A stretch of DNA of 64,000 nucleotides, taken from NCBI GenBank assembly GCA_016794225.1, contig JAEUKQ010000001.1, forward strand, positions 2,062 through 66,061, in the 5' to 3' direction. The notes under the pieces were generated by a model. It was given only the letters and a program-made list of their open reading frames with translations. It was not told the DNA's origin and ran no database searches. The position numbers and the translations under genes are program-made. This document shows, one piece after another, positions 19,528-47,974 of this stretch. The stretch comes from Alphaproteobacteria bacterium (GTDB lineage: Bacteria > Pseudomonadota > Alphaproteobacteria > JAEUKQ01). Every line of letters starts with the position of its first letter. The first letter of the stretch is position 1.

Positions 19528-20295
19528 GTGATGAATTGGCGTTTTATGCAAGGCCGATCTTACCAATTAGACAAGATGGGTCTTAGGGATTTATTTAAAG
19601 CTTTTTTTACCTATCCTACAATTTTAGTTTATTTGGGCCTTGCCATATTGATGATTTATTTAGCATCGCAGGCAGAAGGATCAGGGTGGATGGTTTTTAC
19701 GCCAATTTTGGCGACAGTTCTTATTTATCCCCTTGCCTGGTATCTGATCCACCGTTTTATCCTGCATGGACGTTACCTGTATAAAATCCGCCTCACTGCC
19801 ACTGCTTGGAAAAGAATTCATTTTGATCATCACCAAGATCCACATAACCTGCATGTCCTGTTCGGGGCATTATACACAACCCTACCAACAATTTTTATTA
19901 TCACTGTTACAACTGGCTGGCTGATTGCAGATGAAATGGGAATTTATATAGCCTGTGCCAGTGGTCTAATCATGACCTGTTTTTATGAATTTTGTCATTG
20001 CATTCAACATCTTAATTATCAACCACGAACGGCGTTTATTCAGAAAATAAAAAAATGGCATCTAGCCCACCATTTTCATAACGAACAGGGTAATTATGGG
20101 ATCACCAACTATTTTTGGGATCGGCTGTTTAAAACTTTCTACCACCGTCCCCACGACGTGCCCCGCAGCAAAACTGTTTTTAATCTCGGTTACACCGCCG
20201 AAGAAGCTGATCTCTACCCTTGGGTTTTACAAAAATCGCATGGCATACGCCGCGATGATGGACCAGGTAAAACCCGCCAAAAGCCTAGCGAATAA
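19528..20295 (+). CDS. fatty acid hydroxylase / sterol desaturase superfamily membrane protein
   Basis: Histidine boxes 'HFDHHQDPH' and 'HLAHHFHNEQ' in a multi-TM protein. Confidence 0.7.
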   Translation: MMNWRFMQGRSYQLDKMGLRDLFKAFFTYPTILVYLGLAILMIYLASQAEGSGWMVFTPILATVLIYPLAWYLIHRFILHGRYLYKIRLTATAWKRIHFDHHQDPHNLHVLFGALYTTLPTIFIITVTTGWLIADEMGIYIACASGLIMTCFYEFCHCIQHLNYQPRTAFIQKIKKWHLAHHFHNEQGNYGITNYFWDRLFKTFYHRPHDVPRSKTVFNLGYTAEEADLYPWVLQKSHGIRRDDGPGKTRQKPSE

Positions 20296-20357
20296 TTGTC
20301 AAGAGTAGAATAGACGTTTAATTTATTACTCAAAATAAATTGGAAATTTTTGAAAAA

Positions 20358-21503
20358 ATGATTGATATTACAGCCGTACAATCAAGATCAGAGCTTCGTC
20401 AGTTTGCAATTCTGCCGCGGTTGTTGTACAAAGATTATCGCGGTTTTTGCCCAAATCTTGATACAGAAAATATCAAAATACTGCGCCCAGATAAAAACCC
20501 CTTTTTTGCACACGCCAAGGCTCGCTTCTTTGTTGCCCGAAAAAACGGACGAATTGTTGGGCGTATTGGGGCAATTATCGATGAAGGTTTTATTCAGCAA
20601 TATAAAGAAAACACGGGTTATTTTGGCTTTTTTGACTGTATTCATGACATTCAGGTCTGTCAATTGTTACTACAAGCGGCAGAAAATTGGCTTAAAGATA
20701 ACAAAATGGAAAAAGTCATTGGCCCACTCAGCCCATCAACTGCCGGGGAAGTTGGCTTAATGACCAGTGGGTTTGATGAAGCACCAATGTTAATGATGCC
20801 TTTCCATCCCCCCTACATGATGCAGATGATGGAACAATTATCGGCGTATAAGCCCATTAAAAACCTATATTCCTACTATTATGATGTTCTAAAAGCCCCT
20901 AAAATCGATCGTTACCAGTTAGCCGAACGTTTTGCGAATTACGGTGATCTAAAATTACGACCCTTTAATATGGCTTCTATGAAGTCAGAAATAAATCTTT
21001 TGATTGATGTTTATAACGATGCTTGGTCGAATAATTGGGGTTTTGTCCCATTTACAGCAGCCGAGATTGACCATCTTGGGCAATCTATAAAACCGTTATT
21101 GATTCCGGATTTAATATGGTTCGTTGAACTTAGTGGCCAGCCTGTGGGCATTATCTTGGGATTGCCTAACTTATACCAAATAATTTCCGATTTTAATGGG
21201 CGGCTACTCCCCCTAAATTGGTTGAAATTATTATGGCGCTTAAAAGTAAGCTATTCGATTACCAAAGGGCGTCTTGCCCTTTTTGGTGTTCGTAAACAAT
21301 ATCAACGCTCGCGCCTTGGTTCGCTCATCGCAGCTCTGTTATTGGAAGCCATTCGGGAAAATGGCAAAAAACTTGGTTTTGTCAGCGCTGAACTGGGATG
21401 GGTTCTCGAGGATAATAGCGCACTAAACCTGTTGCTTAAAAATATTGGCGGTAGCTATATCTGTAAAACTTTTCGTATTTACCAGAAAGAAATTTTATCT
21501 TGA
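20358..21503 (+). CDS. GNAT-fold N-acyltransferase-like protein (about 380 aa)
   Basis: C-terminal GNAT motif-A-like block 'VRKQYQRSRLGSLIAALLLEAIRENGKKLGFVSAELGWVLEDNSALNLL'. The ORF-track start 20340 is a TTG, so the first ATG at 20358 is used. Confidence 0.5.
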   Translation: MIDITAVQSRSELRQFAILPRLLYKDYRGFCPNLDTENIKILRPDKNPFFAHAKARFFVARKNGRIVGRIGAIIDEGFIQQYKENTGYFGFFDCIHDIQVCQLLLQAAENWLKDNKMEKVIGPLSPSTAGEVGLMTSGFDEAPMLMMPFHPPYMMQMMEQLSAYKPIKNLYSYYYDVLKAPKIDRYQLAERFANYGDLKLRPFNMASMKSEINLLIDVYNDAWSNNWGFVPFTAAEIDHLGQSIKPLLIPDLIWFVELSGQPVGIILGLPNLYQIISDFNGRLLPLNWLKLLWRLKVSYSITKGRLALFGVRKQYQRSRLGSLIAALLLEAIRENGKKLGFVSAELGWVLEDNSALNLLLKNIGGSYICKTFRIYQKEILS

Positions 21504-22327
21504 CCCCAACAAAATTCTATCATGCCCTAGTGTTAGCTGGAAACCGAAACGAAGACGATCCTATCGTCAAATACCGCGGTACCGCCAACAAAGCAATGAC
21601 ACCTATTTTGGATGTTCCAATGCTTATCAGGGTTCTAGACACCTTGCTTAGCTGCGGCGAGATTCATCAAATTACGGTTTGTTTTGATGAACCTGAACTA
21701 ATACAATCATATGATCTAGTTCAGAAGGCAGTAAAGCAACAAAAATTACACTTTATAAATACCGCTGCAACACCCGCAAGCAGCGTTCAGGCATTTTTGA
21801 AGGCTTATCCAAATGGATATCCCTTTTTACTAACAACAGCTGACCACCCTTTATTAACCTCTAGTATGGTTACAAACTTTATTAAAAACAGCGACCCTTA
21901 TGCTGATTTATCTGTTGGCTTGGCAACGGAAAAGGTTATTCAGAGTACCTACCCACAATCTGTTCGCACATATTACCGGATGCGTGACGGCGGATTCTCG
22001 GGATGTAATTTATATATTATTCGCTCTCGCGTAGCCGAAAAAGTGATTGTTTTTTGGCAAAAGATGGAACGATATCGAAAGAAACCTTTGCGTTTAATTG
22101 CGCAAATAGGTTGGTGGTCGGTTATTCGTTTTCGTTTGTTTGGCTTGACCATTAACCAAGCCTTTAAAATATTGTCTAAACGCTTGGGTGTCAATGCTCA
22201 ACCAACAATTATTCCTTATGCGGAAGCTGCAATTGATGTTGATAAACCAAGTGATTTTGATTTGGCAACCCAGATTCTTCAAAATCGTCTTGCGTCAGAC
22301 CCCAAAAACAGTTCCAGGCCTTATTAA
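21500..22327 (+). CDS. MobA-like nucleotidyltransferase family protein
   Basis: N-terminal 'ALVLAGNRNED...' matches the NTP-transferase (NTP_transf_3-like) glycine-rich loop. Overlaps the upstream gene by 4 nt. Confidence 0.55.
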   Translation: MTPTKFYHALVLAGNRNEDDPIVKYRGTANKAMTPILDVPMLIRVLDTLLSCGEIHQITVCFDEPELIQSYDLVQKAVKQQKLHFINTAATPASSVQAFLKAYPNGYPFLLTTADHPLLTSSMVTNFIKNSDPYADLSVGLATEKVIQSTYPQSVRTYYRMRDGGFSGCNLYIIRSRVAEKVIVFWQKMERYRKKPLRLIAQIGWWSVIRFRLFGLTINQAFKILSKRLGVNAQPTIIPYAEAAIDVDKPSDFDLATQILQNRLASDPKNSSRPY

Positions 22328-22388: not shown

Positions 22389-23126
22389 TTATTTTTTGCG
22401 TCCCCAATTTTTAACCAATATCTCTGCTTTGGTTAAATCTGCTGGGAAATCAACTTCCCCCCATTGTAGCCCATGAATCAGACATGTTTCAACAGTTTTA
22501 CGCTGTGCGATGAGACCGATGATACGCAAATACCACCATTTCAATCCTTCTTGGCTGCGCATACTTTGATCTACCTGACTGCTAAAATCAACACCTCCCT
22601 GGCCACGAAACAGCAACATGCCAATTGATTCGGCATTAACCTGGTCTAACGGTAATGTTTTACCTATTTCCAACAAACGGCTACCTTGGCGTTTAACTTT
22701 CATGTCATCTGCATCATAGGAATCCTTGGTATCAACCGTAACCGTAATATCAGACTTCGGGTTATTTAAAAGGCGTCGTGCGACCTCGATTTCAAAAAGG
22801 GTATCCCCGTTAACAATCATAAAATCTTCTGTCATTTCAGATCTTGCCAACCAACAGCTGCCTAAATTATCAGCTACTTTGTAAAATGGGTTAAATAAGG
22901 TGCGAATCTGAACGCCAGGATACTGTATTTTCTTCAATTGGGCTTCTACCTCTTCGGCAAAAAACCCAACAACGATAACAAAATTTTTAACACCTGCTTG
23001 AACCAAATGGTCTATTTGCCACTCAAGCAAAGTTTTACCGCCAATAGGCAGCAAACATTTTGGTTTTTTTTCGGTTAACGGTAAAAGCCTTGAACCCTGT
23101 CCAGCGCTTAAGATAATTGCTTTCAT
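22389..23126 (-). CDS. sugar/alcohol-phosphate nucleotidyltransferase (LicC/IPCT-like cytidylyl/guanylyltransferase fold)
   Basis: 'MKAIILSAGQGSRLLPLTEKKPKCLLPIGGK' is the classic NTP_transferase N-terminal motif. The start is trimmed to this Met. Confidence 0.7.
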   Translation of the reverse strand: MKAIILSAGQGSRLLPLTEKKPKCLLPIGGKTLLEWQIDHLVQAGVKNFVIVVGFFAEEVEAQLKKIQYPGVQIRTLFNPFYKVADNLGSCWLARSEMTEDFMIVNGDTLFEIEVARRLLNNPKSDITVTVDTKDSYDADDMKVKRQGSRLLEIGKTLPLDQVNAESIGMLLFRGQGGVDFSSQVDQSMRSQEGLKWWYLRIIGLIAQRKTVETCLIHGLQWGEVDFPADLTKAEILVKNWGRKK

Positions 23127-23312
23127 ATGCAATGGTTTCCCAATATGTCTGTGAAAATACCGGCACAGCATGATCAAAATGCCATAAGAAGTCAACCGCC
23201 CTCTATCAAGCATGGCTTACCCCCTAAAGAAATAACCCGGCAAGAAAAATTTTTCTGCCGGGCTTTATCATTTACCTGTGTAACTTATCTGTGTGTAAAA
23301 ATGTCAAATTTT

Positions 23313-35133: not shown

Positions 35134-35318
35134 AGCCTTACCATTATATTTACATATTATTATAGTATAATATCTCACATACATAATAGCTGATAAAACT
35201 TTGTTTGGAAATGAAGTTCTTTTTCCATTGAAAAAGAATATATCATCTTTAGAGTGTTTTCGTTAACTTGTAAAAAAAATTATTATTCATCAAGTTTTTT
35301 GTTTATGACGAGGACTAG

Positions 35319-36062
35319 GTGTTTGTTAGAAGTAAAATAATTAATAATAGTAGGGTTGTATTAAGACCAGATAATATCTTTTGGCGCTATGCTGCAGAGC
35401 TTAGACAAAAAAAAGCTAGGCAATACCTAAAGAATTTTGGTATTATAGAGTTGCTACAAAGCCAAGTATCAACAGAAATAGCCCCTCAATTTTATGATCT
35501 TTATAACCTACACCAACATATTTGTCGCTTTAAACCCAGTATCTGTCTTGAGTTTGGGGTTGGTTTCTCGACAATAGTTATTGCTCATGCGCTATCTGTA
35601 AATGGATTTGGCAAGGTTTACACTGTCGACAGTAATCAATACTGGCTCGATAACACTTTAAAAAAGATTCCCGCTAATCTAGCCCCCTACACTGAGCTTA
35701 ACTTTAGCGAAGCAACTATCGACATATATAATGGGTCATTATGCCATTTTTATACAGAACTACCTAATATTGTACCAGATTTTATTTATCTAGATGGACC
35801 TGATGCTAATGATGTCAAAAACAGCTTCCGTGGCTTACGTTTCGGTGAAATGATAGGGCAAAAAAAAGAACGTCCATCAGTTGCAGCCGATATTTTGCTT
35901 TATGAGAGTACATTGCGTATATCAACAGGATTCTCGATGATTGTAGATGGGCGATCAGTAAATATTGATTTTTTAATACGCCATCTTAGAAGAAACTATC
36001 ATGTTCTAGTCGACCGGGTTTTGCAATACGCATTATTTAAACTAGATTATCCTTTTTTTTAA
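35319..36062 (+). CDS. class I SAM-dependent methyltransferase-like hypothetical protein in an AT-rich segment
   Basis: Motif I-like 'CLEFGVGFST'. Acidic end of beta-2 'VYTVD'. Motif 'FIYLDGPD' resembles the O-methyltransferase family-3 / Methyltransf_24 pattern. Confidence 0.45.
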   Translation: MFVRSKIINNSRVVLRPDNIFWRYAAELRQKKARQYLKNFGIIELLQSQVSTEIAPQFYDLYNLHQHICRFKPSICLEFGVGFSTIVIAHALSVNGFGKVYTVDSNQYWLDNTLKKIPANLAPYTELNFSEATIDIYNGSLCHFYTELPNIVPDFIYLDGPDANDVKNSFRGLRFGEMIGQKKERPSVAADILLYESTLRISTGFSMIVDGRSVNIDFLIRHLRRNYHVLVDRVLQYALFKLDYPFF

Positions 36063-36129: not shown

Positions 36130-37857
36130 ATGACCTTAAAACTTACCCCAAGCACTAATGATAACCTTCGGTTTAACCAAGGAAATTTTAGTAATTTAGC
36201 TGATGCACTTGATTATGCTGCGGCCGGGAGTACTGGCTTTAATTTTTATGATGGCCGTGGACAATTACATCATGTCTTGACTTATCAAAAACTACACATG
36301 CTTGCAACCAACGTTGCCCGCGGATTAATTGCCCAAAAGTTGCCTGTCGGTTCAAGGTTTTTGCTGATTGCTGACACTGTTCCTGAGTTTATGATTCTTT
36401 TTTTTGCATGCCAGTATGCCTCTCTAATTGCCGTACCGGTTGCCCTGCCAGTTGGTCTTGGTAGTAAAGAATCTTATACCGAAGGCCTAAGGCGACAGTT
36501 GCAAGATTGTGGTGCTATTGTAGCGGGTGCGCCAAAAGAGTTGTTAGATTTTTTAATAGCTGCTTCAGCTGGACTAGACTTAAAGTTATTAGGGTCATTT
36601 CAGTCAATTATTGACCTAGCTCAACCCCATGGCAATATAAGACCATGGCGTCAGGCTGATGATCCTTGCTATTTGCAATATTCATCTGGCAGCACCCGCT
36701 TCCCACGTGGCATTGATTTACGTCAATCGACCGTGATGTCCAACTTGCATGCGATTAGCAAATATGGCGTTCGCATGGGTGCTGAAGATCGCATAACATC
36801 TTGGCTGCCATTATACCATGATATGGGTTTAGTTGGATGTACCCTAACCCCCTTTGCTAACCAGCTATCAGTTGATTTTATGGCAACACGGGATTTTGCC
36901 AAAAGGCCTATGTTATGGCTTGAATTGGTTTCTAGGAATAGGTCAACCATTACCTACGGACCAAGTTTTGCATATAACCTTTGTGCCAGACGGGCATCGT
37001 CTGCAATTCTTGATGACCTTAAGCTTGATTTAACGCCCCTGCGTGTTGCTGGCATTGGCGCGGATATGATCCAGGCAAAGGTACTGGGTGAATTCGCTCA
37101 GGTATTTGCCAGGTCTGGTTTCAACAAAACGGCTTTTTTGGCAAGTTACGGTATGGCAGAAGCAGCTCTAGCCCTGACTTTTGCAAAATTAGGTACAGGC
37201 ATCGGGACAGATTATGTTGATCGGGAAAAGTTGGTGCGTACTTCTGTTGCTGAAGCAGTTAATCACGAACACCCTAATTGTCAGGTTTTTGTTACATGTG
37301 GACACTTATTGCCGGGATACCAGATGGAAATACGTAGCGAGGATGGCCAGGTTTTAGGAACGCGTCGGCAAGGAAAAATATATGTTAAAGGTCCAAGCAT
37401 TATGAAAGGGTATTTTAATCAACCCGAAGCAACCCTGGCTGTTCTTAGCCCTGATGGTTGGTTAGATACAGGTGATTTAGGTTACAAACTAGCTTCAGAA
37501 GAAATTGTCATTACTGGACGTAGTAAAGACTTAATTATTATCAATGGACGCAATATTTGGCCGCAGGATATTGAATGGACGCTGGAAGAGTTACCAGAAA
37601 TCCGTAAGGGCGATGCTGCTGCGTTTGCCGTGAATAAAAATGATGAAGAAAAAATTATTATTCTGGTTGAGTGCCGATTAAAGGAATCAACACAACGACA
37701 AAAATTGGTTCAAGAGGCTGAGGCAGCTGTGCGACGGGCACATGGTGTAGAAACGCAAGTTGTTTTAGTACCGGTTCGTAGCCTACCTTACACATCATCG
37801 GGCAAATTAAGCCGTTCCAAGGCTAAAGCAGCGTACCTTGCCGGCCAATATTCATAG
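36130..37857 (+). CDS. fatty acyl-AMP ligase / acyl-ACP synthetase (AMP-binding superfamily)
   Basis: AMP-binding motif 'YSSGSTRFPRGI'. About 575 aa FAAL-like. Linked to the dedicated ACP and Spt. Confidence 0.8.
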   Translation: MTLKLTPSTNDNLRFNQGNFSNLADALDYAAAGSTGFNFYDGRGQLHHVLTYQKLHMLATNVARGLIAQKLPVGSRFLLIADTVPEFMILFFACQYASLIAVPVALPVGLGSKESYTEGLRRQLQDCGAIVAGAPKELLDFLIAASAGLDLKLLGSFQSIIDLAQPHGNIRPWRQADDPCYLQYSSGSTRFPRGIDLRQSTVMSNLHAISKYGVRMGAEDRITSWLPLYHDMGLVGCTLTPFANQLSVDFMATRDFAKRPMLWLELVSRNRSTITYGPSFAYNLCARRASSAILDDLKLDLTPLRVAGIGADMIQAKVLGEFAQVFARSGFNKTAFLASYGMAEAALALTFAKLGTGIGTDYVDREKLVRTSVAEAVNHEHPNCQVFVTCGHLLPGYQMEIRSEDGQVLGTRRQGKIYVKGPSIMKGYFNQPEATLAVLSPDGWLDTGDLGYKLASEEIVITGRSKDLIIINGRNIWPQDIEWTLEELPEIRKGDAAAFAVNKNDEEKIIILVECRLKESTQRQKLVQEAEAAVRRAHGVETQVVLVPVRSLPYTSSGKLSRSKAKAAYLAGQYS

Positions 37858-37867
37858 ATAAACGCCT

Positions 37868-38809
37868 ATGAAGCAAAAGATTATTGCAATCACTGGCGGC
37901 ACTGGTTTTATCGGTAGCCACCTTGTTCAACGATTGGCACAAGATGGGTGGCACATTAGACTTCTTTGTCGGCGTTTCCCAATTCATCCGCTTTGGTATA
38001 ATAGTAAATTTGAGGTTGTTATTGGTGACTTAACAGACCACCGTGCATTGCACAAACTAATCGATAACAGCCAAGTGGTAATTCATGCCGCAGGCCTTAT
38101 AAAGGCGGCACAAGCCGACGATTTTTACAAAATTAATAGCAAGTTCACCGAGAATATCGCCAACATCGTTTTACAGCGAGCACCAAGCAGTCACTTTATT
38201 TTTATGTCTTCTCTAGCAGCACGTGAAGGTTTATCCATTTATGGCCGAAGCAAGAAGATGGCTGAAGATTGTTTACAAAACAAACAACTTCATTGCAGCG
38301 TTATTCGCGCCCCCGCGGTATATGGCGAGCTCGATCGGGAGGTATTTCCAGTAATTAAATTGTTAAAATATGGCTTTGGTTTGGCAGTAGGTAATCCACT
38401 TGCCCGATTTTCACTTATTCATGCTGCCGATTTAAGTGATTTTATTTGCTACCTTTCTCAGAAAAAAAGTGAATCATTCACCATATATGAACCACATGAT
38501 GGTAAAACAACAGGATATAGCTGGACCGAATTTCTTGAAGAACTAAGACAAACACTTGGTAAAAGGTATTTTATTCGTATTAATTGTAATCGCTTTATAC
38601 TAAGATTTTATGATTATCTTCAATCAATCCGACAGATATTAACACCCAATTTTGTTAACATTCTGGGTCATGGTAAGATAGATGAAATCCTTCACCCCAA
38701 CTGGGTCTGTGACACAAAATCGATGCCCAACGATTGGCACCCTTCCCTCAATCTCAACCAAGGGCTATCAAGAACTATTAAGGGTTATCAAATGGCAGGT
38801 TGGCTTTAA
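37868..38809 (+). CDS. NAD(P)-dependent epimerase/dehydratase-family reductase (CerR-like candidate 3-ketodihydrosphingosine/ceramide reductase)
   Basis: Rossmann 'ITGGTGFIGSHL'. Catalytic YxxxK 'IYGRSKK'. Its position in the spt cluster parallels Caulobacter CerR. Confidence 0.65.
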   Translation: MKQKIIAITGGTGFIGSHLVQRLAQDGWHIRLLCRRFPIHPLWYNSKFEVVIGDLTDHRALHKLIDNSQVVIHAAGLIKAAQADDFYKINSKFTENIANIVLQRAPSSHFIFMSSLAAREGLSIYGRSKKMAEDCLQNKQLHCSVIRAPAVYGELDREVFPVIKLLKYGFGLAVGNPLARFSLIHAADLSDFICYLSQKKSESFTIYEPHDGKTTGYSWTEFLEELRQTLGKRYFIRINCNRFILRFYDYLQSIRQILTPNFVNILGHGKIDEILHPNWVCDTKSMPNDWHPSLNLNQGLSRTIKGYQMAGWL

Positions 38810-38833: not shown

Positions 38834-40060
38834 TTAGGCAACAGCAAACTTTTGCTGGGTATGTATTGCAAAATAGCCAACTTCTTCAGCGGTCTTTTTT
38901 AAGATATCAACCACCTTTTGCAGTTGCTGGCGTTCATGAGCACTACATATACTGCAACGCAACAAAACCGTGCCCATTGGTGTCGCAGGTGGCATCACAA
39001 TATTGGCATAAACACCATTTTTTAATAGATTCTGCCAAAAAAGAGTTCCAACCTCGACATTTGGTAAATAGATTGGAACAACTGGACTTTTGTTTTTACC
39101 TAACCTAAAACCAAGCTGTGCCAATTGATTATAAAAGAATTCAACATTTTGCCATAAGCGGTATCTTAGCTGCGGTTCCTGTTGAATAATTCTTAGCGCT
39201 GTCTTCACAGATGCAATGGTTGCTGGTGGTAGAGATGCGGTAAACATATATGGCCGGCATACGAGCCGAAGTAGATCAAATTCCGGGGAGTCTGAAACAC
39301 AAAATCCACCGACAGCTCCTAGGCTTTTGCTAAATGTACCCACAATAAAATCAATATCGGCCTCAACGTTTTCTTCTTGACACAGACCACGTCCAGTCTG
39401 TCCCAAAACACCCATTGAATGGGCTTCATCAAGAACGATATACGCATTGGCATACTTCTTTTTAACCGCAACAAAATCGGTTAGAGGTGCCTTATCACCT
39501 AGCATGCTATAAATGCCCTCAAGCACGATAATTTTGTTACCAGGTTTATCCTGCAGAGCATTTAATCGACGATCTAAATCGTTGGGATCATTATGGCGAA
39601 AACGAATAACCGTAGCTGTACCCAGTTTCGCACCGTCATATATGCTGGCATGCGAATCAGCATCAAGTAATAAAAAATCGTCTGGCCCGGCTATTGTTGA
39701 AATAATTCCTAAATTTGCCTGATAGCCAGTTGAAAAAACCATGGCTTGTTTTTTACCATAAAAATCTGCCAAGTCTGATTCTAAAGTGGTATGCTCGGCA
39801 TAGCTACCGTTGGCAATGCGTGAACCGGTTGTTCCAGTACCTGAGAGATAAGCGGTTTCGGCTGAAGCGGCCTGACAACGCGGATCAAATGTTAAGCCCA
39901 AATAATTGTTGGTACCTATTAAAATAGTCTTACGCCCATTGATAATAGCTTCGGTTGGGGATAGAAGTTTCTCCATTTTAATACCAAAAGGGTCGACACC
40001 CAAAGACTTCATGTGTTCATATTGGCGACGAACCGTTTGAAACCGTTTTAACAAAGCCAT
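38834..40060 (-). CDS. spt: serine palmitoyltransferase (alpha-oxoamine synthase family)
   Basis: PLP-lysine motif 'GTFSKSLG'. AOS-family architecture. Clustered with a dedicated ACP and acyl-ACP synthetase, which is the hallmark of bacterial Spt rather than BioF/Kbl. Confidence 0.75.
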   Translation of the reverse strand: MALLKRFQTVRRQYEHMKSLGVDPFGIKMEKLLSPTEAIINGRKTILIGTNNYLGLTFDPRCQAASAETAYLSGTGTTGSRIANGSYAEHTTLESDLADFYGKKQAMVFSTGYQANLGIISTIAGPDDFLLLDADSHASIYDGAKLGTATVIRFRHNDPNDLDRRLNALQDKPGNKIIVLEGIYSMLGDKAPLTDFVAVKKKYANAYIVLDEAHSMGVLGQTGRGLCQEENVEADIDFIVGTFSKSLGAVGGFCVSDSPEFDLLRLVCRPYMFTASLPPATIASVKTALRIIQQEPQLRYRLWQNVEFFYNQLAQLGFRLGKNKSPVVPIYLPNVEVGTLFWQNLLKNGVYANIVMPPATPMGTVLLRCSICSAHERQQLQKVVDILKKTAEEVGYFAIHTQQKFAVA

Positions 40061-40080: not shown

Positions 40081-40338
40081 TTATACCGAAGCAAGCTTCG
40101 TAATTGTTGAGGTTAAATCACCCGCTGTTTTAATTTCTGACATCACGTTCATGGGTATTGAAATATTAAATTCCTGTTCCAAATCCATGATCAAATCCAT
40201 TACAGTAAGCGAATCAAGGTTTAAATCAGAAGACAAATCGGTCTGCATACTGATATGGACATTACTACCCGACTTATTATAGCGCTGCAATATAGCGATA
40301 ACCTTCGGGAAAACCTGGCTTATCTGTAAAGTTGACAA
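40081..40338 (-). CDS. dedicated acyl carrier protein
   Basis: 85 aa. Phosphopantetheine attachment motif 'LDSLTVMDL'. Confidence 0.85.
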   Translation of the reverse strand: MSTLQISQVFPKVIAILQRYNKSGSNVHISMQTDLSSDLNLDSLTVMDLIMDLEQEFNISIPMNVMSEIKTAGDLTSTITKLASV

Positions 40339-40405
40339 TTTTCTACCCTTAAAAACATCTTTATTCTACTTATAACAAAGATCGCCCTACAGCAGAAATA
40401 ACAAT

Positions 40406-40424
40406 TTGTAACAATTTGTTACAA
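40406..40424. promoter_or_regulatory. 19-bp palindrome TTGTAACAA-T-TTGTTACAA (also a 10-bp tandem direct repeat ACAATTTGT[AT]) upstream of acp-spt
   Basis: Read directly from the sequence. It lies in the 131-nt gap between the Tam41-like gene and acp on the transcribed (minus) side. Confidence 0.3.
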
Positions 40425-40469
40425 ACTGATGGTTTCATAACTAAAAATTATATTTGCTATTTAAAATCG

Positions 40470-41486
40470 TTAAAGAATCTTTGATTGTTGTCTATGCCGG
40501 GCTTGGTAATAACGCCATACAAAAACCGGTATTGCGAGAACTGGATGCCGATAACACCACGCCGGAATGCTAATTTTTTGTCCCGTATGACGTTGCATTT
40601 TCCAAACAGCATAAGCGACAGCATCTTGAAAAGTAAAAAGGGCTTTGATAAGGCGCATGAAATTTAAAAATTTTCCTGCCATCCGCCGCCCTAACCATGT
40701 TAAGCCTGCATTGTACCGTTTAATTATCAACGAAAAATAATTGATATTGCGGATAAAAGTTACCTCGGAGTTAGTGTTGGTATCAGTGATATTAAAGTGA
40801 GCTGGTTTATTACCTAATATTGCCAGGGCAGTTTGCTGGTAGTAGCGTTCCGATCTGCGATATAGTTCGACAATCCGCGCTGTTTTCTCAACACGAATTT
40901 CTGCCTTATAGGTTTCTTGGAAAGCCCTAACCCAAATATCATGGGCGGTAAACTGGCTACCCAAAAGGGGAAATGTCTGACTGAGCATCGTTGTAACAGC
41001 CTGTGATAATATTTGGACAATTGAATACCGATCACGTTCATGATGCACAAAAACCAGCCGTACAGGCTGTGAGAACCTTGCCCAAATTGCTGGCTGTAAG
41101 CTGCTGCCTGAAGAGCCCTTGCGGAATTGATCAATACTTATAAGCGCATATTTCGCCTGCCGAACCTTTTCTTTATCATTGGTCTGTACATAATATACAT
41201 TTGGTGGCAATAGCCAATTCAAAACGCTTTTTAAAATTGATTGATTATCCTGCTGATAGCTGGGTACGATAACATAAAAATCAAAAAGCTGATCATCTTT
41301 TACCAGCATTTGTTGTTCAAAATTCCACAAACAAGACCCATAAAATAAAATTGCGATTGCGGCAGGGTGTCGACGGCGCAACATATCGACAAAGGCATTG
41401 ACAGTTTCAGAGTATGGTTTGGCAATTTCATCTTGTATTAGTTGATGTAAAGATGGATGCGTTGCCAACATGACGACCTCTAACAA
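40470..41486 (-). CDS. Tam41/Mmp37-family protein (homolog of mitochondrial CTP:phosphatidate cytidylyltransferase)
   Basis: Conserved blocks match my recollection of Tam41. 'LFYGSCLWNFEQ' corresponds to 'FGYGSGVFEQ'. 'LFDFYVIV' corresponds to 'IDIILGV'. 'PPNVYYVQTN' corresponds to 'GAGVYFNPF'. 'AKYALISIDQF' corresponds to 'VKYGVVSMETL'. 'W.ARFSQPVRLV' corresponds to 'W..YLAGRLQKPVKIL'. The family call is inference and needs HMM confirmation. Confidence 0.55.
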   Translation of the reverse strand: MLEVVMLATHPSLHQLIQDEIAKPYSETVNAFVDMLRRRHPAAIAILFYGSCLWNFEQQMLVKDDQLFDFYVIVPSYQQDNQSILKSVLNWLLPPNVYYVQTNDKEKVRQAKYALISIDQFRKGSSGSSLQPAIWARFSQPVRLVFVHHERDRYSIVQILSQAVTTMLSQTFPLLGSQFTAHDIWVRAFQETYKAEIRVEKTARIVELYRRSERYYQQTALAILGNKPAHFNITDTNTNSEVTFIRNINYFSLIIKRYNAGLTWLGRRMAGKFLNFMRLIKALFTFQDAVAYAVWKMQRHTGQKISIPAWCYRHPVLAIPVFVWRYYQARHRQQSKIL

Positions 41487-42478
41487 ACAATAAAATTAAA
41501 TTTTGGTGTTGTCGCGAATCGCAGTGGTTGATCCATTGAATCTGGCATGTCCTCTCCATCCAAAAAAGCGGTGCTATTAAAATTAATTCCTAAATTGCTA
41601 GCCGTTCCACTACAATAACCATGATCGATCATCCAGGATGAAGGTCGCCCTAATAGCAGCAAAGGTATAGCTTTAAAAAACTGATACGGTGGGTAACTAA
41701 CGGATAAATAACGAATTGCTGATTGCTCTTGCCCCCAAAATACCTTTAAACCCAAAGGTAGCTTATTTAAGGTTGTCGCCAGAAATAATAAATAATCCTG
41801 CTCTTTAATCATGTGCTGATCAAGTTGAATCACCCCTCGGTAGCCTTGATATAAACCAAAATTATCTACCTTGATATTGTTTTTGCGGCCAAATTGATTT
41901 TTAAAAGCACCATAGACGCTTTTTACAAGTGGCAAAAGTATCGATAAAATACCACGCATTTTCTGCGCACGCAGTTGTTGCCGGCTTAAATCTGTTGCCC
42001 GAGCAAATGCACCTGTTCCAAAAAAGAATCCTATTTGGGGTTTTGGAAAAGAAGGATGCTCAATAACCATCGCCGGTTTTGATAAAATTGTTGTGTACTC
42101 TAATCCAAATTGCATCATTTCGTCTAAAAGACGAACCAATGATATTCTCATACCAAGCTCATGGGCAATAAGATTCGTCGTACCGCCCCGGATAAGACCA
42201 AATATAGGAAATTTAATGTCTAAGCGGTACTGCCAAAGCAGGGTTAAAATACGATGGATTGTTCCATCGCCGCCATTGATAAACAAAAAATCTGGCATGT
42301 TATGCACCAGTTTCTTTAAAAGATCCTCTAATTCCTGAAGATTAGCGGGAACATAATGTTGTACATTAGGATAACAGCGCATGGCCCGCTTTATACCATC
42401 CAGCAGGCGTGATGAATGATTGAGCCAGCTTCTAGGGTTGCTGATAACAGCAACCGCGGGGGTTATTGGGAAAGCCAA
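41480..42478 (-). CDS. DAGK_cat-family lipid kinase (sphingosine/ceramide/diacylglycerol kinase-like)
   Basis: 'FINGGDGTIHRIL' is the GGDG motif of the DAGK catalytic domain. Overlaps the Tam41-like gene by 7 nt. Confidence 0.7.
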   Translation of the reverse strand: MAFPITPAVAVISNPRSWLNHSSRLLDGIKRAMRCYPNVQHYVPANLQELEDLLKKLVHNMPDFLFINGGDGTIHRILTLLWQYRLDIKFPIFGLIRGGTTNLIAHELGMRISLVRLLDEMMQFGLEYTTILSKPAMVIEHPSFPKPQIGFFFGTGAFARATDLSRQQLRAQKMRGILSILLPLVKSVYGAFKNQFGRKNNIKVDNFGLYQGYRGVIQLDQHMIKEQDYLLFLATTLNKLPLGLKVFWGQEQSAIRYLSVSYPPYQFFKAIPLLLLGRPSSWMIDHGYCSGTASNLGINFNSTAFLDGEDMPDSMDQPLRFATTPKFNFIVC

Positions 42479-43665
42479 GATACCAACTTACCATTCTTTC
42501 TTTTGTATTGAATGGCCTGCAAAAGCTGTACAATATGAAAAAGAAGAGACACAACCGTCCAAATACCTACAACAGCCAATCCCCACCCAGGAAATCCCAA
42601 TATAATAGCAATCGTAAGAATCACAAGGTTTGGATTTCGTCTGGCGGTTATAAGGCGGAATAAGGTATCAATACGCCGCCATACATGAATATGCATACCA
42701 TGAACCCGCGAAAAATAACCTTCAATAAGCCTTTGAATAATATAGCCAATTAAGATAATACCCAACAAATAATTAGGATTGAACATATTAAATTCATAAG
42801 CGCTTGTCTGAAGAACACCATACCACCATGCCCACCACCAGAATGGCGGATGAACAAGATCGGTTCCATGATCGAGGACGTTTCCAAGTGTTGACGACGT
42901 TAAGGTAACGCGAGCCAATTTGCCATCAACCGTATCAAGTAATGTCATAACCCAAGCAGCAACCAATCCCCAAGCAAAATAACTTTTATAAAACAACCAC
43001 GTTGCTACAAGCATTATAATAAAACCTATGATTGTAACCATATTGGGGCTTAGCCTTAGAAAGGCAGCTAACCTTGTTAAAGGTAAAGCGATAGGCGGCC
43101 AAACATACTTGGTAATAATATCCGTGACCCCCTTGTAAGAACCATCAAACATAACTTTTTCAATATCACGTTGGTTTGTACTACTAATATCGAAAACATA
43201 GGGTTTGTACCTCTTGCGTAGTTTTGCATGATAGTTGCTTGCCAAATCCCCTGCCTCGCAGACAGATATTCCTAGTTTTTTTGCAGAGAAAATAAGATTC
43301 TCTGGGCTACCCCCCCAAAGCGCAGTAATGTTGTTTACAGAAATTTTTTGAAATAATCCGGCAATAACTCGTCCTTCAGTTTTGTGATTAACTAAAACTG
43401 TATCTGGCTTAGCAGAAAGGTTACGTACCGTTACCTCATCCACAATATAAGAACCATGGACTACGAAAATTTTGCTTGGCACAACAGGCAAATTACCAAG
43501 CACTTGGGGTAATTCGTGCGGAGTTGCAACCTGAAAAACATAATGATAGCCAAGAGTTTTCTTAAAAATTCTTTGCCATCGGTCTGATGGGGTCTGTTGC
43601 CAGACCTTAATAGCACTATGGCCAATAATAACGGCTACAGCGGTATTAGGTTGAGATAAGTTCAT
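42463..43665 (-). CDS. CDP-alcohol phosphatidyltransferase with an N-terminal soluble domain of about 180 aa
   Basis: Perfect signature D-x2-DG-x2-AR-x8-G-x3-D-x3-D in 'LLDTVDGKLARVTLTSSTLGNVLDHGTDLVHP'. Multi-TM C-terminal half. Overlaps the kinase gene by 16 nt. Confidence 0.8.
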   Translation of the reverse strand: MNLSQPNTAVAVIIGHSAIKVWQQTPSDRWQRIFKKTLGYHYVFQVATPHELPQVLGNLPVVPSKIFVVHGSYIVDEVTVRNLSAKPDTVLVNHKTEGRVIAGLFQKISVNNITALWGGSPENLIFSAKKLGISVCEAGDLASNYHAKLRKRYKPYVFDISSTNQRDIEKVMFDGSYKGVTDIITKYVWPPIALPLTRLAAFLRLSPNMVTIIGFIIMLVATWLFYKSYFAWGLVAAWVMTLLDTVDGKLARVTLTSSTLGNVLDHGTDLVHPPFWWWAWWYGVLQTSAYEFNMFNPNYLLGIILIGYIIQRLIEGYFSRVHGMHIHVWRRIDTLFRLITARRNPNLVILTIAIILGFPGWGLAVVGIWTVVSLLFHIVQLLQAIQYKRKNGKLVSWLSQ

Positions 43666-43783: not shown

Positions 43784-44707
43784 ATGACATTCCGTTTAGC
43801 CCATTTATCAGATGTACATTTACCTTTTCAACTAACAAATCCTTGGTTATTACTTAACAAAAGGCTTATTGGTTTTTTGTCTTGGCGTTTTAAACGCCGT
43901 CATATTCATCTTTCTCAGGTATTAGACGCTCTTGCAATTGATCTAAAATCAATTAAGCCAGACCATACAGTAATTACGGGCGATATCGTTAACATTTCCC
44001 TACCAACAGAATATCGACAAGCCGCTTTGTGGCTTAAAGAATTAAGTGACACAGAGCATCTCAGTATTGTACCAGGAAACCATGATGCTTACGTCAATGT
44101 GCGCCCAGACCGTGGTTTAGGATTATGGCAGCCTTACATGAACAATGAACCAGGCGACACCTTGGTAAATATTATGGATTTTCCCTATGTCCGCTACCGC
44201 GGCCCTATAGCCATTATTGGGCTATCTACTGCCTGTCCTGTTCCATTATTTAGTGCTGCTGGTTACTTGGGTGATAAACAAATTCAGAAATTAGACCACA
44301 TATTAACTACCCTTAATAAGCGCGATCACTGTCGGATTATCCTGATGCACCACCCACCATTTGCCAGTGATCGACACCGCCGCAAGCAATTGCGCGATAT
44401 AAACCCTTTCACTAACGTCATTAGTAAACATGGCGTTGAATTAATTTTACACGGACATTTGCACATACCCTCGCTACGAAGCATTGAGGGACCAGACGGG
44501 GTTGTTGCAGTTATAGGGGTATCTTCCGCATCGGCCAGTCATCACAACCATAAAAGCCCGTCAAGGTATCATGTTTATTCTATTGCTAAACAACCATCTG
44601 GTTGGTTAATTACAACTGAAATCAGAGAGCTAGATCATACCCCATCATTTCATTACAAAAAAGCTGGTCTTTTCGACTTAACAATTCCTTTTTCTCGTGA
44701 TACATAG
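43784..44707 (+). CDS. calcineurin-like metallophosphoesterase
   Basis: Motifs 'LSDVHL' (D-x-H), 'GDIVN' and 'GNHD'. Confidence 0.75.
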   Translation: MTFRLAHLSDVHLPFQLTNPWLLLNKRLIGFLSWRFKRRHIHLSQVLDALAIDLKSIKPDHTVITGDIVNISLPTEYRQAALWLKELSDTEHLSIVPGNHDAYVNVRPDRGLGLWQPYMNNEPGDTLVNIMDFPYVRYRGPIAIIGLSTACPVPLFSAAGYLGDKQIQKLDHILTTLNKRDHCRIILMHHPPFASDRHRRKQLRDINPFTNVISKHGVELILHGHLHIPSLRSIEGPDGVVAVIGVSSASASHHNHKSPSRYHVYSIAKQPSGWLITTEIRELDHTPSFHYKKAGLFDLTIPFSRDT

Positions 44708-44743: not shown

Positions 44744-45178
44744 ATGCCCAATTCAACATTACAAAAATTTGCTTTCCCTTCTCTTCAGATTGCCCAGAAT
44801 GATCACTGGATTGTGTTGTTACGACGTCCACAAATAACACTTGGCAGCCTAGTTATTGTTACCCGGCATGAGGAAACGGCTTTATCTGAAATTCGCAAGA
44901 CTGCTTTCCAAGATTTAAGCCCAATTATCCAAAGTATTGAGAAAACCCTTAAAAAACTTTGGCAATATGATAAGATAAACTATTTAATGCTGATGATGGT
45001 TGATCCGCATGTTCACTGGCATGTAATTCCCAGATACCAGAATAATCGCCAATGGAAAAACCAATCTTTTGTCGACTTAAATTGGCCTAAAGCTCCAGAC
45101 CTTGCCAAAGCTATTCATCTCTCCAGTGAAATCGAGGCAGAATTATTAGCAACTCTTAAGAATAACTGGGATCACTAA
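44744..45178 (+). CDS. HIT-family nucleotide hydrolase/transferase
   Basis: Histidine triad 'HVHWHVIPR'. Confidence 0.7.
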   Translation: MPNSTLQKFAFPSLQIAQNDHWIVLLRRPQITLGSLVIVTRHEETALSEIRKTAFQDLSPIIQSIEKTLKKLWQYDKINYLMLMMVDPHVHWHVIPRYQNNRQWKNQSFVDLNWPKAPDLAKAIHLSSEIEAELLATLKNNWDH

Positions 45179-45180: not shown

Positions 45181-46440
45181 TTGGCATCGGATAATATTTC
45201 ATCCACATCCCATATTAATAATTCTTTTTCTTCTGGATCTTCTTTAATACTGACAACCTTAATACTGCGTTATTTGTGTTGGCCTTTGCTGGCTTGTCTT
45301 GGTGTTGCACTTGTGACCTTGTTGCTTGAGCGATTATTGCGCCTTGTCGATATGGTACTAACCAAGGCAGGTCCCTTGCATATTGTAGTTCAGATGTTGG
45401 GTAATTTGATACCCCATTATTTGGGTATAGCTATTCCAATTGCTTTTTTTATTGCTATTATTTTTACGGTAATCAAATTAAGCCAATCAAGCGAATGGGA
45501 TGCAGCACAATCCCTTGGTTTTGGATTAGTCAAGCTTTTAAAACCACTGCTTGTTGTTGCGGCAGGACTAACGCTGCTAACCTTTTTTATAACAGGCTAT
45601 CTGCAACCCCATACACGTTATGCCTATCGTGCCCTAGTTCACCTTATTAACGAAACAGCCTGGAACGCAACCCTAGAACGCGGCAGTTTTTTCTTTGGGC
45701 TACCTAATACGGTTATTAGTATTGATGGTACCCGGAAAGTTTATGATGATTTAGGCGTTGGACAAGAAATTACTGGAATTTTTATTCAGCAAACGCCTCC
45801 AAACGGCAATGAAATAACCATTGCGGCCGAAAAAGCACAAATAATCCGCGCGAACAGTGATGACCAGTTGGTAATTATTTTAGAAAATGGGTTAAGACTT
45901 GAAAAACGCCAAAACGGTCAATCAAGCATAGCTAGTTTTCAAGAATTCAGATTACCTATCGATTTTTCCGCCCTAGACAAGCAATTTCGTGATCGCGGCG
46001 TTGAGGGGGGCGAGCGTGAGCTAACTTTTGTTGAGCTTATCAAATTGTCTAAAAATCCCCCTGCTCTTCTATCAGAAGATAAAATATTGGCTGAAATTCA
46101 TGGGCAACTCGTGCGTAATTTAAGCATTCTTGCCCTTCCATTCTGGGCCATAGCGCTTGGGATCGTCCCACGGCGGCGTCAGGCCGGTTTGGGGATTGCT
46201 GCGGGGTTGATTGTCATTGTCACCTATCACCAAATGATACAACTGGGACACAGCCTAGTAGGTAATGGCGAGATATCACCCGTAATCGCCCTTTGGCTAC
46301 CCTTTATATGTTTCAGTGCGATTGGCTATTTTTTATTTCATCTAACCGCAACAAGGCCAGGGTTTAATGCGGTTGAATGGTTATCGGCGCACACACCATT
46401 TCTTAACCGGTACAAAAGTTTTAACAGGGGCAAGTCATGA
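45181..46440 (+). CDS. lptF: LPS export ABC permease LptF
   Basis: LptF/LptG-family architecture. N-terminal 'ILRYL' TM block. Overlaps lptG by 4 nt. Confidence 0.75.
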   Translation: MASDNISSTSHINNSFSSGSSLILTTLILRYLCWPLLACLGVALVTLLLERLLRLVDMVLTKAGPLHIVVQMLGNLIPHYLGIAIPIAFFIAIIFTVIKLSQSSEWDAAQSLGFGLVKLLKPLLVVAAGLTLLTFFITGYLQPHTRYAYRALVHLINETAWNATLERGSFFFGLPNTVISIDGTRKVYDDLGVGQEITGIFIQQTPPNGNEITIAAEKAQIIRANSDDQLVIILENGLRLEKRQNGQSSIASFQEFRLPIDFSALDKQFRDRGVEGGERELTFVELIKLSKNPPALLSEDKILAEIHGQLVRNLSILALPFWAIALGIVPRRRQAGLGIAAGLIVIVTYHQMIQLGHSLVGNGEISPVIALWLPFICFSAIGYFLFHLTATRPGFNAVEWLSAHTPFLNRYKSFNRGKS

Positions 46441-47549
46441 CCCTAAAAACACTAGGACGACACCTGTTTCATCAACATCTGAAATATATCGTTATCACAC
46501 TGTTGTTTCTATCAGGTTTATTACTGATATTGGATCTGCTAAACAATATCGACGACATTCTGTCAACCAAAAATAATATTGTCTGGGCAACCATTGAATA
46601 TGCTTTATTACGCTTGCCAAGTATTATGCTTCTGATGATGCCTTTTGCCATCTTGCTGGCTAGCTTGCTTTTTTTATCACGTTTGTCACAAACGCAAGAA
46701 ATTCTTGCTATAAAAGCTATTGGGGTACCCTTTTACCGTTTTTTGTTTTGTTTATTGCCGGCCGGTCTGTCAATGTGTCTTCTGTTTTTTACAACCAGCG
46801 AGTGGCTGATTCCATATACAATGGTTAAGCTACAAAATTGGGAACAGCAATCAACCGGAACAGACCCTAAAAAACAACCAGACCCTATATCTAAAACAGC
46901 ACACAGTCTATGGTTAAAAGAAGATAACGATTTTATTGCAATAGATTCCGTTAGATATGACGGAAAAATTCTTGATGGTGTGCGCATTTTTATCCGCGAT
47001 CCAAACAATATCATTACACAGCAAATAACCGCCCAAAAGGCTGAATGGCTAAATAATGATTGGACTTTACAGCAAGGACAGGTTGTTCACATATCCCAAA
47101 CTAATTTGGGTAGCTTTTCACTATCCGTCGAAAATTTTGTCGATCGTTTATGGAAGACATCCCTAAGGCCAGATTATATTGTTCAATCATCATTAGGGGC
47201 TGAGTATTTAAGCTTATTGGAATTATCTGATTTTAGTAAACCGGATTTCGTTGGTGCAAACTCAAAATATTATTATGAAAGTTGGTTTTACCGACGCATT
47301 TTTGCGCCGTTATCATGTTTAATTATGATTTTACTGGCAAGTCCCAATGCCCAATTAATCCCGCGCAGGACAACCTTAAGTCATAATATATTAATTAGCA
47401 TAGGTCTTGGGTTTTTATATTTTGTACTTGATGGTATTTTGCTAACTTTTGGACAAACCGGAATTTTACAGCCCTTGTTAGCCGCCATTGCCCCTTTGCT
47501 CATCTTTACTGCTGTCGGTTTTTGGGGTTTAATAAGAAGCGATGAATAA
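46437..47549 (+). CDS. lptG: LPS export ABC permease LptG
   Basis: Paralogous permease with a periplasmic beta-jellyroll insert. Coupled to lptF. Confidence 0.8.
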   Translation: MTLKTLGRHLFHQHLKYIVITLLFLSGLLLILDLLNNIDDILSTKNNIVWATIEYALLRLPSIMLLMMPFAILLASLLFLSRLSQTQEILAIKAIGVPFYRFLFCLLPAGLSMCLLFFTTSEWLIPYTMVKLQNWEQQSTGTDPKKQPDPISKTAHSLWLKEDNDFIAIDSVRYDGKILDGVRIFIRDPNNIITQQITAQKAEWLNNDWTLQQGQVVHISQTNLGSFSLSVENFVDRLWKTSLRPDYIVQSSLGAEYLSLLELSDFSKPDFVGANSKYYYESWFYRRIFAPLSCLIMILLASPNAQLIPRRTTLSHNILISIGLGFLYFVLDGILLTFGQTGILQPLLAAIAPLLIFTAVGFWGLIRSDE

Positions 47550-47572: not shown

Positions 47573-47974
47573 ATGATACCCCACAATCAAAATTATAATG
47601 AGTGGCTTGGGCATCAAATTACAAGATGGGATCCGGGTTCTGTTGAACTTACCTTATCTATAAGGCCCGATCACTTAAATACCCTTGGTATTCTACATGG
47701 CGGTGTTTTATGTTCTCTATTGGATATTGCAGGTGGTTTAGCTGGGCTTTTCCATGATCATCATCAGCAGGCAAAGACAGAACGGCGTCGAGCGGTTACC
47801 ATTTCGTTGACAACCCATTTTATTCATCAATCCCCTTCCCAAGGAATTTTAAAAATTACTGGTCAGCAATTAGGGGGAGGACGCAGGGTTTATTTTAGCA
47901 CAGCACAAATTCTATCCGAAGAAAACAAGCTTTTGGCTAAAGGCGATGGCACTTACCGCTATCTTGATAGTTAG
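47573..47974 (+). CDS. PaaI/YbgC-like hotdog-fold thioesterase
   Basis: 133 aa. 'LNTLGILHGGVLCSLLD' is typical of PaaI-type thioesterases. Confidence 0.7.
   Translation: MIPHNQNYNEWLGHQITRWDPGSVELTLSIRPDHLNTLGILHGGVLCSLLDIAGGLAGLFHDHHQQAKTERRRAVTISLTTHFIHQSPSQGILKITGQQLGGGRRVYFSTAQILSEENKLLAKGDGTYRYLDS

Follow-up and report, generated by a model that had tools for sequence, protein, structure and literature searches.

A 64,000-nucleotide stretch of DNA (the window; contig JAEUKQ010000001.1, positions 2,062 to 66,061) from an uncultured metagenome-assembled genome labelled Alphaproteobacteria, with roughly 40% GC, carries three adjacent minus-strand genes at positions 40470-43665 of the window. 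Judged by gene content and gene order, the trio is the set of cpgA, cpgB and cpgC orthologs of the Caulobacter ceramide (poly)phosphoglycerate pathway, and it lies in a near-complete locus for sphingolipid synthesis and export. This is a published pathway in a new host and not a new system. The explanation that we favour as a whole, and hold to be probable, joins this orthology to a two-module model of head-group assembly in which CDP-ceramide is the likely product of the CpgC ortholog. In Caulobacter the anionic-sphingolipid system supports the outer membrane upon loss of lipopolysaccharide and determines polymyxin sensitivity. For the window, the value of the assignment lies in correct annotation: genes that carry generic family names, or are called hypothetical in close relatives, belong to one anionic-sphingolipid system.

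Orthology of the trio to the Caulobacter cpg genes

The published Caulobacter map (Olea-Ozuna et al. 2024 among its sources) shows a cluster of 17 genes, CC_1152-CC_1168. In Caulobacter crescentus, CpgA, CpgB and CpgC (CCNA_01217-01219, corresponding to CC_1159-1161) together with CpgD produce ceramide diphosphoglycerate (CPG2). CC_1159 (CpgA) is a PF01066 transferase, CC_1160 (CpgB) a demonstrated ceramide kinase, and CC_1161 (CpgC) carries an InterPro Tam41 signature. The three genes are flanked on one side by a phosphoesterase, a HIT gene and LptF2/LptG2, and on the other by Spt, AcpR, CerR and AasR.

A homolog search with the 400-aa protein of the window trio returned full-length relatives in Phenylobacterium and Caulobacter. 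Through this search we found the comparison locus L081, which lies on a 4.3-Mb Caulobacteraceae chromosome and whose called genes reproduce the published CC_1152-CC_1168 layout. In reciprocal BLAST between the window and L081, all three proteins of the trio aligned near full length in both directions. The CpgA ortholog (400 aa, 42463..43665, minus strand) was 42.6% identical over 376 aa to the product of the gene in the CC_1159 position (E 1e-100). The CpgB ortholog (332 aa, 41480..42478, minus strand) matched the CC_1160-position protein at full length with 29.8% identity (E 5e-26), and the CpgC ortholog (338 aa as called, 40470..41486, minus strand) matched the CC_1161-position protein with 30.2% identity (E 1e-35). 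Chance open reading frames (ORFs) are excluded for the trio, since the ORFs are long and the homolog E-values range from 1e-26 to 1e-100.

One-to-one pairs in identical order extended over 11 contiguous genes at 25-55% identity, and the counterparts of the bCerS, CC_1153-like and CpgD-like genes of L081 were placed by the same BLAST elsewhere in the window. All eight expected neighbours were present in the same relative order, with Spt, AcpR, CerR and AasR to one side and the metallophosphoesterase, HIT, LptF2 and LptG2 to the other, and the CPG2-specific genes CpgD and CC_1153 as well as bCerS were all found. The window and the Caulobacter cluster therefore have in common the three families in the same order, the same neighbours and a 16-nt overlap of cpgA with cpgB, an overlap of the same length being present in L081. 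They differ in that the window locus falls into two blocks with 17 kb between them, contains a fatty-acid hydroxylase, and has no counterpart, by BLAST of the window against L081, of the CC_1166 flippase, CC_1167 or LptC2. Because the window matches the Caulobacteraceae cluster CC_1155-CC_1165 gene for gene and in order, the trio was assigned as cpgA, cpgB and cpgC. This answers a question left open in an earlier note made from the sequence of the window, namely whether the genes match those reported in Caulobacter. That note had also assigned the three protein families and recognized their sphingolipid context, with serine palmitoyltransferase (SPT), acyl carrier protein (ACP), fatty acyl-AMP ligase and a short-chain dehydrogenase/reductase (SDR) adjoining the trio; both were correct, two of the families being supported by Pfam and the Tam41-like one by profile and fold.

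Properties of the three proteins

The 400-aa CpgA ortholog scored 37.4 bits against Pfam CDP-OH_P_transf (PF01066; cutoff 22) and contains the complete motif D244-x2-D-G-x2-A-R-x8-G-x3-D-x3-D269 (DTVDGKLARVTLTSSTLGNVLDHGTD, residues 244-269), the motif residues being invariant in 50 homologs. With a score above the Pfam cutoff and a complete motif, the reading as a CDP-alcohol transferase with a full catalytic signature held. The protein has two domains, an N-terminal cytidylyltransferase-like cytosolic domain (approximately residues 1-165) and a C-terminal transmembrane catalytic domain. In the AlphaFold2 model (predicted local distance difference test, pLDDT, 89.6) six long helices span residues 183-391. 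The best fold matches of this model were AF2299 (TM-score 0.71) and IPCT-DIPPS, PIPS being matched as well, and the best match of the CpgA-family profile in the PDB was cholinephosphotransferase (E 2.6e-9).

AF2299 and IPCT-DIPPS (Archaeoglobus; 4O6M/4O6N, 4MND) have the same two-domain architecture with the full motif (TM-score 0.59-0.71), and IPCT-DIPPS, by its name, transfers a soluble CDP-alcohol, CDP-inositol, as has been proposed for CpgA with CDP-glycerate. The CpgA ortholog differs from them in sequence (11-14% identity), in its proposed acceptor, a sphingolipid, and in its N-terminal domain, where no GxGxR-type nucleotide loop was seen. The Kennedy-type choline/ethanolamine phosphotransferases CHPT1/CEPT1 (8ERO, 8GYW) take a phospho-alcohol group from a soluble CDP-alcohol and place it on the hydroxyl of a lipid, which is the polarity of the CpgD/CpgA model, but they match over only about 110 residues around the motif, are eukaryotic, differ in the number of transmembrane segments and have no N-terminal cytosolic domain. 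The AF2299/IPCT-DIPPS architecture and the cholinephosphotransferase match fit a soluble CDP-alcohol donor without proving one. Profile and fold matches were rejected as a means of discriminating the donor of the transferase, since users of soluble CDP-alcohols and users of CDP-lipids are both matched.

The 332-aa CpgB ortholog scored 40.2 bits against DAGK_cat (PF00781; cutoff 23.6) and has a GGDG motif at residue 69, confirming it as a lipid kinase of this family. It is closer to CpgB than to YegS/DgkB-type kinases, as judged by its full-length similarity to the CpgB-position protein and by synteny in 70 of the 80 loci surveyed below; YegS-type matches were weak (25 bits against a cutoff of 118 for the NCBIfam model; PDB E 0.08). 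Because the PDB matches were only weak YegS ones, no structural conclusion on the substrate was drawn. We infer that the protein is a ceramide kinase. Caulobacter CpgB phosphorylates ceramide and has been reported to phosphorylate diacylglycerol too.

Direct scans of the 338-aa protein gave no Pfam or NCBIfam match even at E≤0.1. The comparison with PF09139 that the earlier note had named as decisive for its Tam41 reading was thus negative for this ORF itself, and the relation to Tam41 stood by way of homologs, profile and fold. Many full-length homologs of the window protein were found, some with a precomputed PF09139 match. Taken individually, 19 of 47 aligned homologs matched PF09139 (E≤0.01, best 2e-9) and the remaining 28 did not; homolog P0256 reached 34.3 bits (cutoff 24). 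The best PDB match of the family profile built on the 47 homologs was S. pombe Tam41 (E 3.5e-4), with the YGS, K-Y, R-F-x-x-P and Y-x-x-[DE]-x-R blocks aligned. An AlphaFold model on the homolog alignment (pLDDT 85.9; predicted template modelling score, pTM, 0.86) predicted the nucleotidyltransferase (NTase) plus winged-helix fold of 6IG2/7ECD, and in Foldseek the top five PDB matches of the model were all Tam41 (E 5e-9 to 2e-7), followed by aminoglycoside nucleotidyltransferases (E ≥ 3e-4). Since 19 of the 47 homologs match PF09139 and both the family profile and the fold hit Tam41, the miss in direct scans is a failure of sensitivity and not a true negative. The Tam41/Mmp37 relation of the third protein is borne out by the profile, the model and Foldseek.

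Residues G50, S51, D69, K112 and R137 are invariant in the CpgC family. D69 is the sole invariant acidic residue of the NTase strand, the canonical DxD pair being reduced to D-x-Y with an invariant Y71, and the alignment pairs K112 and R137 with K150 and R174 of Tam41. Tam41 has been described with an active site of one acidic residue and basic CTP ligands, and with a basic amphipathic C-terminal membrane anchor. The single acidic residue and the basic residues of the CpgC family therefore fit the reported Tam41 active-site style. The C-terminal 92 residues of the CpgC ortholog (247-338) carry a net charge of +14, with an amphipathic helix running through about residues 265-285; the protein showed no hydrophobic window that would indicate a transmembrane helix.

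Tam41/Mmp37 proteins (S. pombe 6IG2/6IG4; Firmicutes bacterium 7ECD; PF09139) resemble the CpgC ortholog in the aligned blocks, the basic amphipathic C-terminus and, going by the reported description of Tam41, the single conserved acidic residue. In contrast, the CpgC family is only 12-16% identical to Tam41, the window protein falls below Pfam thresholds, and the C-terminal basic region is as conserved in the family as the catalytic core, unlike a simple anchor. Outside the NTase core no block is more conserved than this region, which is absent from the Tam41 crystal constructs. Substrates differ as well, Tam41 acting on phosphatidate and CpgC, by Caulobacter genetics, on ceramide-1-phosphate. 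A bacterial Tam41 homolog had been thought unusual when the window was first read, but bacterial homologs have been known since 2022: a homolog of a Firmicutes bacterium has a solved structure (PDB 7ECD) and is reported to make CDP-diacylglycerol.

Conservation of the trio in related loci

The CpgC-like family has at least 589 matches in species-representative genomes of several phyla and comprises 1,674 clusters at 50% identity. From these genomes 80 loci were collected with the family profile, and co-occurrence was scored within ±10 kb. The kinase adjoined the Tam41-like gene in 70 loci, many of the other 10 being cut by short contigs. The transferase was present in 37 of the 80, and there the trio was contiguous, tightly packed and in the same order. 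Twenty fully flanked loci had the kinase/Tam41-like pair without a transferase. The pair is the conserved core and the transferase is optional.

Every CpgD-like gene detected lay in a locus that also has the transferase (24 of 37, as against 0 of 43 without it; Fisher p 2e-11, a value that overstates independence, the 80 loci being related by phylogeny). Restricting the comparison to loci flanked by a full 10 kb left 18 of 24 with the transferase and 0 of 20 without, where a call of absence can be false because the survey sees ±10 kb and the CpgD ortholog of the window itself lies about 20 kb from cpgA. The HIT-family gene was likewise confined to transferase loci (19/37 versus 0/43). A 2024 paper called the HIT gene CC_1157 'probably unrelated' to the pathway; its co-occurrence pattern, the same as that of CpgD, suggests that it belongs to the CPG2 module. 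The metallophosphoesterase was present in 47 of the 80 loci.

A further locus, L082, encodes a natural fusion (P0346, positions 4390-6378, 662 aa) in which a CpgB-like DAGK_cat kinase is joined to a Tam41 relative of the CpgC type. The gene directly upstream of the fusion encodes a CDP-OH transferase of 412 aa, and gene calling in this 14-kb locus gave neither SPT nor CpgD.

In most loci with enough flank the pair sits with SPT, ACP, CerR, AasR or bCerS. The two-gene core was found in Alpha-, Gamma- and Delta-type proteobacteria, Nitrospirales, Marinimicrobia and Rokubacteria; CpgC-like proteins also occur in Myxococcota and Desulfobacterales, and in most hosts of the family a gene for ceramide synthesis lies close by. 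The pair thus reaches far beyond 'Caulobacterales and Sphingomonadales', the range given at first. Among the genome matches listed, none was closer than 38% identity to the CpgC ortholog of the window, and the nearest relatives seen come from metagenome protein clusters.

Two paralogous CpgA-like transferases were seen in eight of the loci (L005, L016, L020, L030, L036, L049, L058 and L059; Dongia, Reyranella, Rhodospirillaceae and one Nitrospirales). The second copy follows LptG2 in all of these except the Nitrospirales locus L016, and several of the two-copy loci have no CpgD-like gene within 10 kb.

A proposed two-module assembly of the head group

Deletion phenotypes of the three genes are published for Caulobacter (Zik 2022). 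A cpgB deletion is without ceramide phosphate, ceramide phosphoglycerate (CPG) and CPG2; a cpgC deletion keeps or accumulates ceramide phosphate and loses CPG and CPG2; in a cpgA deletion CPG is still made and CPG2 alone is missing. Caulobacter CpgD makes CDP-glycerate, which is the proposed donor for CpgA. These phenotypes, the occurrence of CpgD only with the transferase, the pair in loci lacking the transferase, the kinase/Tam41-like fusion and the architecture of the transferase support two modules. In the first, the kinase and the Tam41-like enzyme would build the first head group; in the second, CpgD and CpgA would add a further phosphoglycerate.

In this model the CpgB ortholog would yield ceramide-1-phosphate, as shown biochemically for its Caulobacter ortholog. 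CpgC, a peripheral-membrane protein, would then act on ceramide-1-phosphate and would be needed for the first glycerate, as the Caulobacter genetics indicate. CpgA would add a further phosphoglycerate to CPG, its donor being soluble CDP-glycerate from the CpgD ortholog; this step draws on Caulobacter genetics and CpgD biochemistry, and on co-occurrence in the present survey. From its similarity, the CpgD ortholog of the window is predicted to be a CTP:2-phosphoglycerate cytidylyltransferase making CDP-glycerate. Finally, LptF2/LptG2 would export the anionic lipid, a function described for the Caulobacter pair in a 2026 preprint. Because a cpgA deletion keeps CPG and CpgD supplies CDP-glycerate, CpgA would not be the consumer of the CpgC product.

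In the CpgC step the lipid phosphate would most likely be activated with CTP, the reaction that Tam41 performs on phosphatidate, to give CDP-ceramide. From the Tam41 fold and the conserved residues, the most economical inference is that CpgC would be a CTP:ceramide-1-phosphate cytidylyltransferase. Olea-Ozuna et al. 2024 had noted the Tam41 signature in CC_1161 and proposed that this protein makes an NDP-activated ceramide. The statement in the earlier note that a CDP-activated ceramide had not been described is thus right in that none has been demonstrated so far, and overlooks that proposal. Extended to the family, the suggestion is that CpgC-type relatives make CDP-ceramide and form, with a ceramide kinase, a self-sufficient two-gene core; we put this forward tentatively, at somewhat less than an even chance. 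Candidates to resolve the CDP-ceramide would be the conserved basic C-terminus of CpgC itself and one of the housekeeping CDP-alcohol phosphatidyltransferases. If true, such a core could explain ceramide phosphoglycerate, and likewise the reported accumulation of ceramide phosphoglycerol in a Zymomonas mutant.

The Tam41-like protein might instead not be a lipid-phosphate cytidylyltransferase: it would condense ceramide-1-phosphate with an activated glycerate donor or another nucleotide, or would serve, without catalysis of its own, as a scaffold for another transferase, and no CDP-ceramide would form. Direct addition of glycerate was proposed by Zik et al. from lipid profiles, and the reduced D-x-Y pair with its invariant tyrosine, the strong conservation of a C-terminal block that the Tam41 crystal constructs lack, and the absence of a partner transferase conserved nearby are all in keeping with it. 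However, Tam41 itself works with one acidic residue, and the residues that align between Tam41 and the CpgC family are the invariant ones. Joining a phosphate monoester to glycerate needs activation, the unactivated route being 'energetically unfavourable' (Olea-Ozuna et al.). Moreover, Caulobacter strains mutated in cpgD or CC_1153 go on making CPG, so that the first step does not depend on NDP-glycerate from either enzyme. We consider this alternative unlikely, while giving it appreciable weight.

Several points count against the favoured explanation of two modules with CDP-ceramide as the CpgC product. Apart from the relatedness of the surveyed loci, the limited reach of the survey and the empty direct scans of the 338-aa protein, PIP synthase and CHPT1 score much alike against the transferase, and sequence and fold do not separate CDP-diacylglycerol-type from CDP-alcohol-type donors. 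CDP-ceramide has never been detected, and the literature searched has no mention of the term. In 2025-2026 the Klein and Airola groups still described the CpgC mechanism as unidentified, and no study resolving CpgC was found in the literature searched on Tam41 and ceramide in bacteria. Passing CDP-ceramide on to glycerate needs a second activity, and no dedicated gene for it is conserved beside the pair: unlabelled clustering of neighbouring ORFs, examined for a partner transferase, yielded nothing beyond a fatty-acid hydroxylase and shadow ORFs of genes already known. The CpgC step is a genuine biochemical puzzle, for which the survey narrows the focus to the conserved and fused pair, the association of CpgD with the transferase only, and the conserved C-terminal basic block. 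The idea of a nucleotide-activated ceramide is already published, and Caulobacter is the better system in which to test it.

The earlier note had arranged the three enzymes in one linear route, in which the Tam41-like enzyme would supply CDP-ceramide and the adjacent transferase would pass its ceramide-phosphate to an alcohol; glycerate, glycerol-3-phosphate or inositol would be candidates. This logic is common to the CdsA-PgsA/PssA route through CDP-diacylglycerol, where a lipid is phosphorylated, CMP-activated and transferred to an alcohol; CdsA, however, is unrelated to Tam41-like proteins, and the transferase of the Caulobacter cluster is dispensable for the first head group. In favour of a linear route, the trio is tightly packed in this order in 37 of the 80 loci, the transferase motif is intact, and the structural relatives of the transferase include CDP-lipid users (PIP synthase and PgsA-type enzymes). 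On the fusion contig L082, the transferase precedes the fused kinase-Tam41 gene, and CpgD is missing from the 8 kb around them. The Caulobacter mutants nevertheless contradict the order, since deletion of the transferase gene leaves CPG and removes only the second phosphoglycerate, and deletion of cpgC leaves ceramide phosphate. The survey agrees, with the pair standing without a transferase in 20 fully flanked loci and CpgD-like genes confined to loci with one, and the window has a CpgD ortholog of its own at 53% identity. We therefore regard the linear route as improbable.

A glycerophospholipid bypass, in which the kinase would act on diacylglycerol, the Tam41-like enzyme would replace CdsA in making CDP-diacylglycerol and the transferase would produce a glycerophospholipid, draws on the reported diacylglycerol kinase activity of CpgB and the reported product of bacterial Tam41, but is very improbable given the ceramide-synthesis genes around the pair in most sufficiently flanked loci, the specific loss of sphingolipid species in the Caulobacter mutants and the remote kinship (12-16% identity) of the CpgC family to bona fide Tam41.

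Gene organization and neighbouring genes

The trio had been described as three overlapping genes. Strand and coordinates were correct, as was the overlap of the transferase and kinase genes, but the overlap of the kinase and Tam41-like genes is probably not real. The kinase stop codon TAG lies within TAGAGG, so that a GAGG Shine-Dalgarno sequence overlaps the stop, and an ATG follows 5 nt past GAGG. This ATG, at 41471, is most likely the start of the Tam41-like gene, because the Shine-Dalgarno sequence precedes it and the resulting 333 aa is the length of the closest homologs; an 8-nt gap after the kinase gene would then replace the overlap.

A 131-nt spacer separates the trio from the acp-spt genes. 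It contains an AT-rich 12-bp hairpin or palindrome (40402..40428, minus strand; core GTAACAA-A-TTGTTAC) followed by a T-rich tail, flagged as terminator-like from its sequence. The palindrome is perfect, and there is a repeated AAATTGTTA half-site. The element could be a weak terminator or attenuator, or an operator, ahead of acp-spt. A promoter scan gave 11 sites against 15.6 in shuffled sequences, fewer than expected, and since the real count was below that of the shuffles no promoter was inferred.

Beyond the spacer, on the minus strand, lie the genes for an AcpR-type dedicated acyl carrier protein (40081..40338, 85 aa; PP-binding E 2e-10; 48% identity to the CC_1163-position protein) and a serine palmitoyltransferase of the aminotransferase fold (38834..40060, 408 aa; 55% identity to the CC_1162-position protein). 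Despite the Alphaproteobacteria label of the host, the SPT was above cutoff on the NCBI betaproteobacterial SPT model (NF047599, 630.7 bits, cutoff 500) and below it on the alphaproteobacterial one (491.7, cutoff 670). On the plus strand follow a CerR-type SDR reductase (37868..38809; Epimerase family E 3.5e-21; 31% identity, E 3e-43, to the CC_1164-position protein) and an AasR-type fatty acyl-AMP/ACP ligase (36130..37857; NF006624 741.6 bits; 49% identity to the CC_1165-position protein).

On the other side, a plus-strand gene divergent from the trio encodes the metallophosphoesterase orthologous to CC_1158 (43784..44707; Metallophos E 3.7e-14; 39.7% identity). It is followed on the same strand by the HIT-family CC_1157 ortholog (44744..45178; HIT E 8e-8; 47% identity) and by the LptF2 and LptG2 paralogs (45181-46440 and 46437-47549), a sphingolipid-specific ABC permease pair (PF03739 E 1e-59 and 5e-73; 33% and 25% identity to the CC_1156- and CC_1155-position proteins).

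The second block of sphingolipid genes is separated from the first by PutA, an ABC importer, AccC and other housekeeping genes. It contains, on the plus strand, a fatty-acid hydroxylase (19528..20295; PF04116 E 9e-19), a bCerS-like N-acyltransferase orthologous to CC_1154 (20340..21503; 35.9% identity, E 6e-68, with a GNAT match) and a CC_1153-like MobA/CofC-type nucleotidyltransferase (21500..22327; 32% identity, E 2e-44; NTP_transf_3 E 2.6e-10). On the minus strand is the CpgD ortholog (22389..23213; 52.9% identity, E 9e-83, to the CC_1152-position protein; NTP_transferase E 5e-15), and a LysR-family regulator (23313-24320) lies beside the block. From its position next to bCerS the hydroxylase is probably a ceramide hydroxylase, and the same hydroxylase family recurs beside bCerS in related loci.

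Some genes around the first block are not matched on the Caulobacter map. One, for a Methyltransf_24 methyltransferase (35319-36062), lies just upstream of the acyl-AMP ligase, and a 4HBT thioesterase (47573-47974) directly follows LptG2 and is itself followed by a patatin-like phospholipase (48013-49155). Immediately upstream of the sphingolipid block are a tandem pair of small MlaD-domain genes and a tandem run of three Sel1/TPR-repeat genes (30657-31604, 32705-35184).

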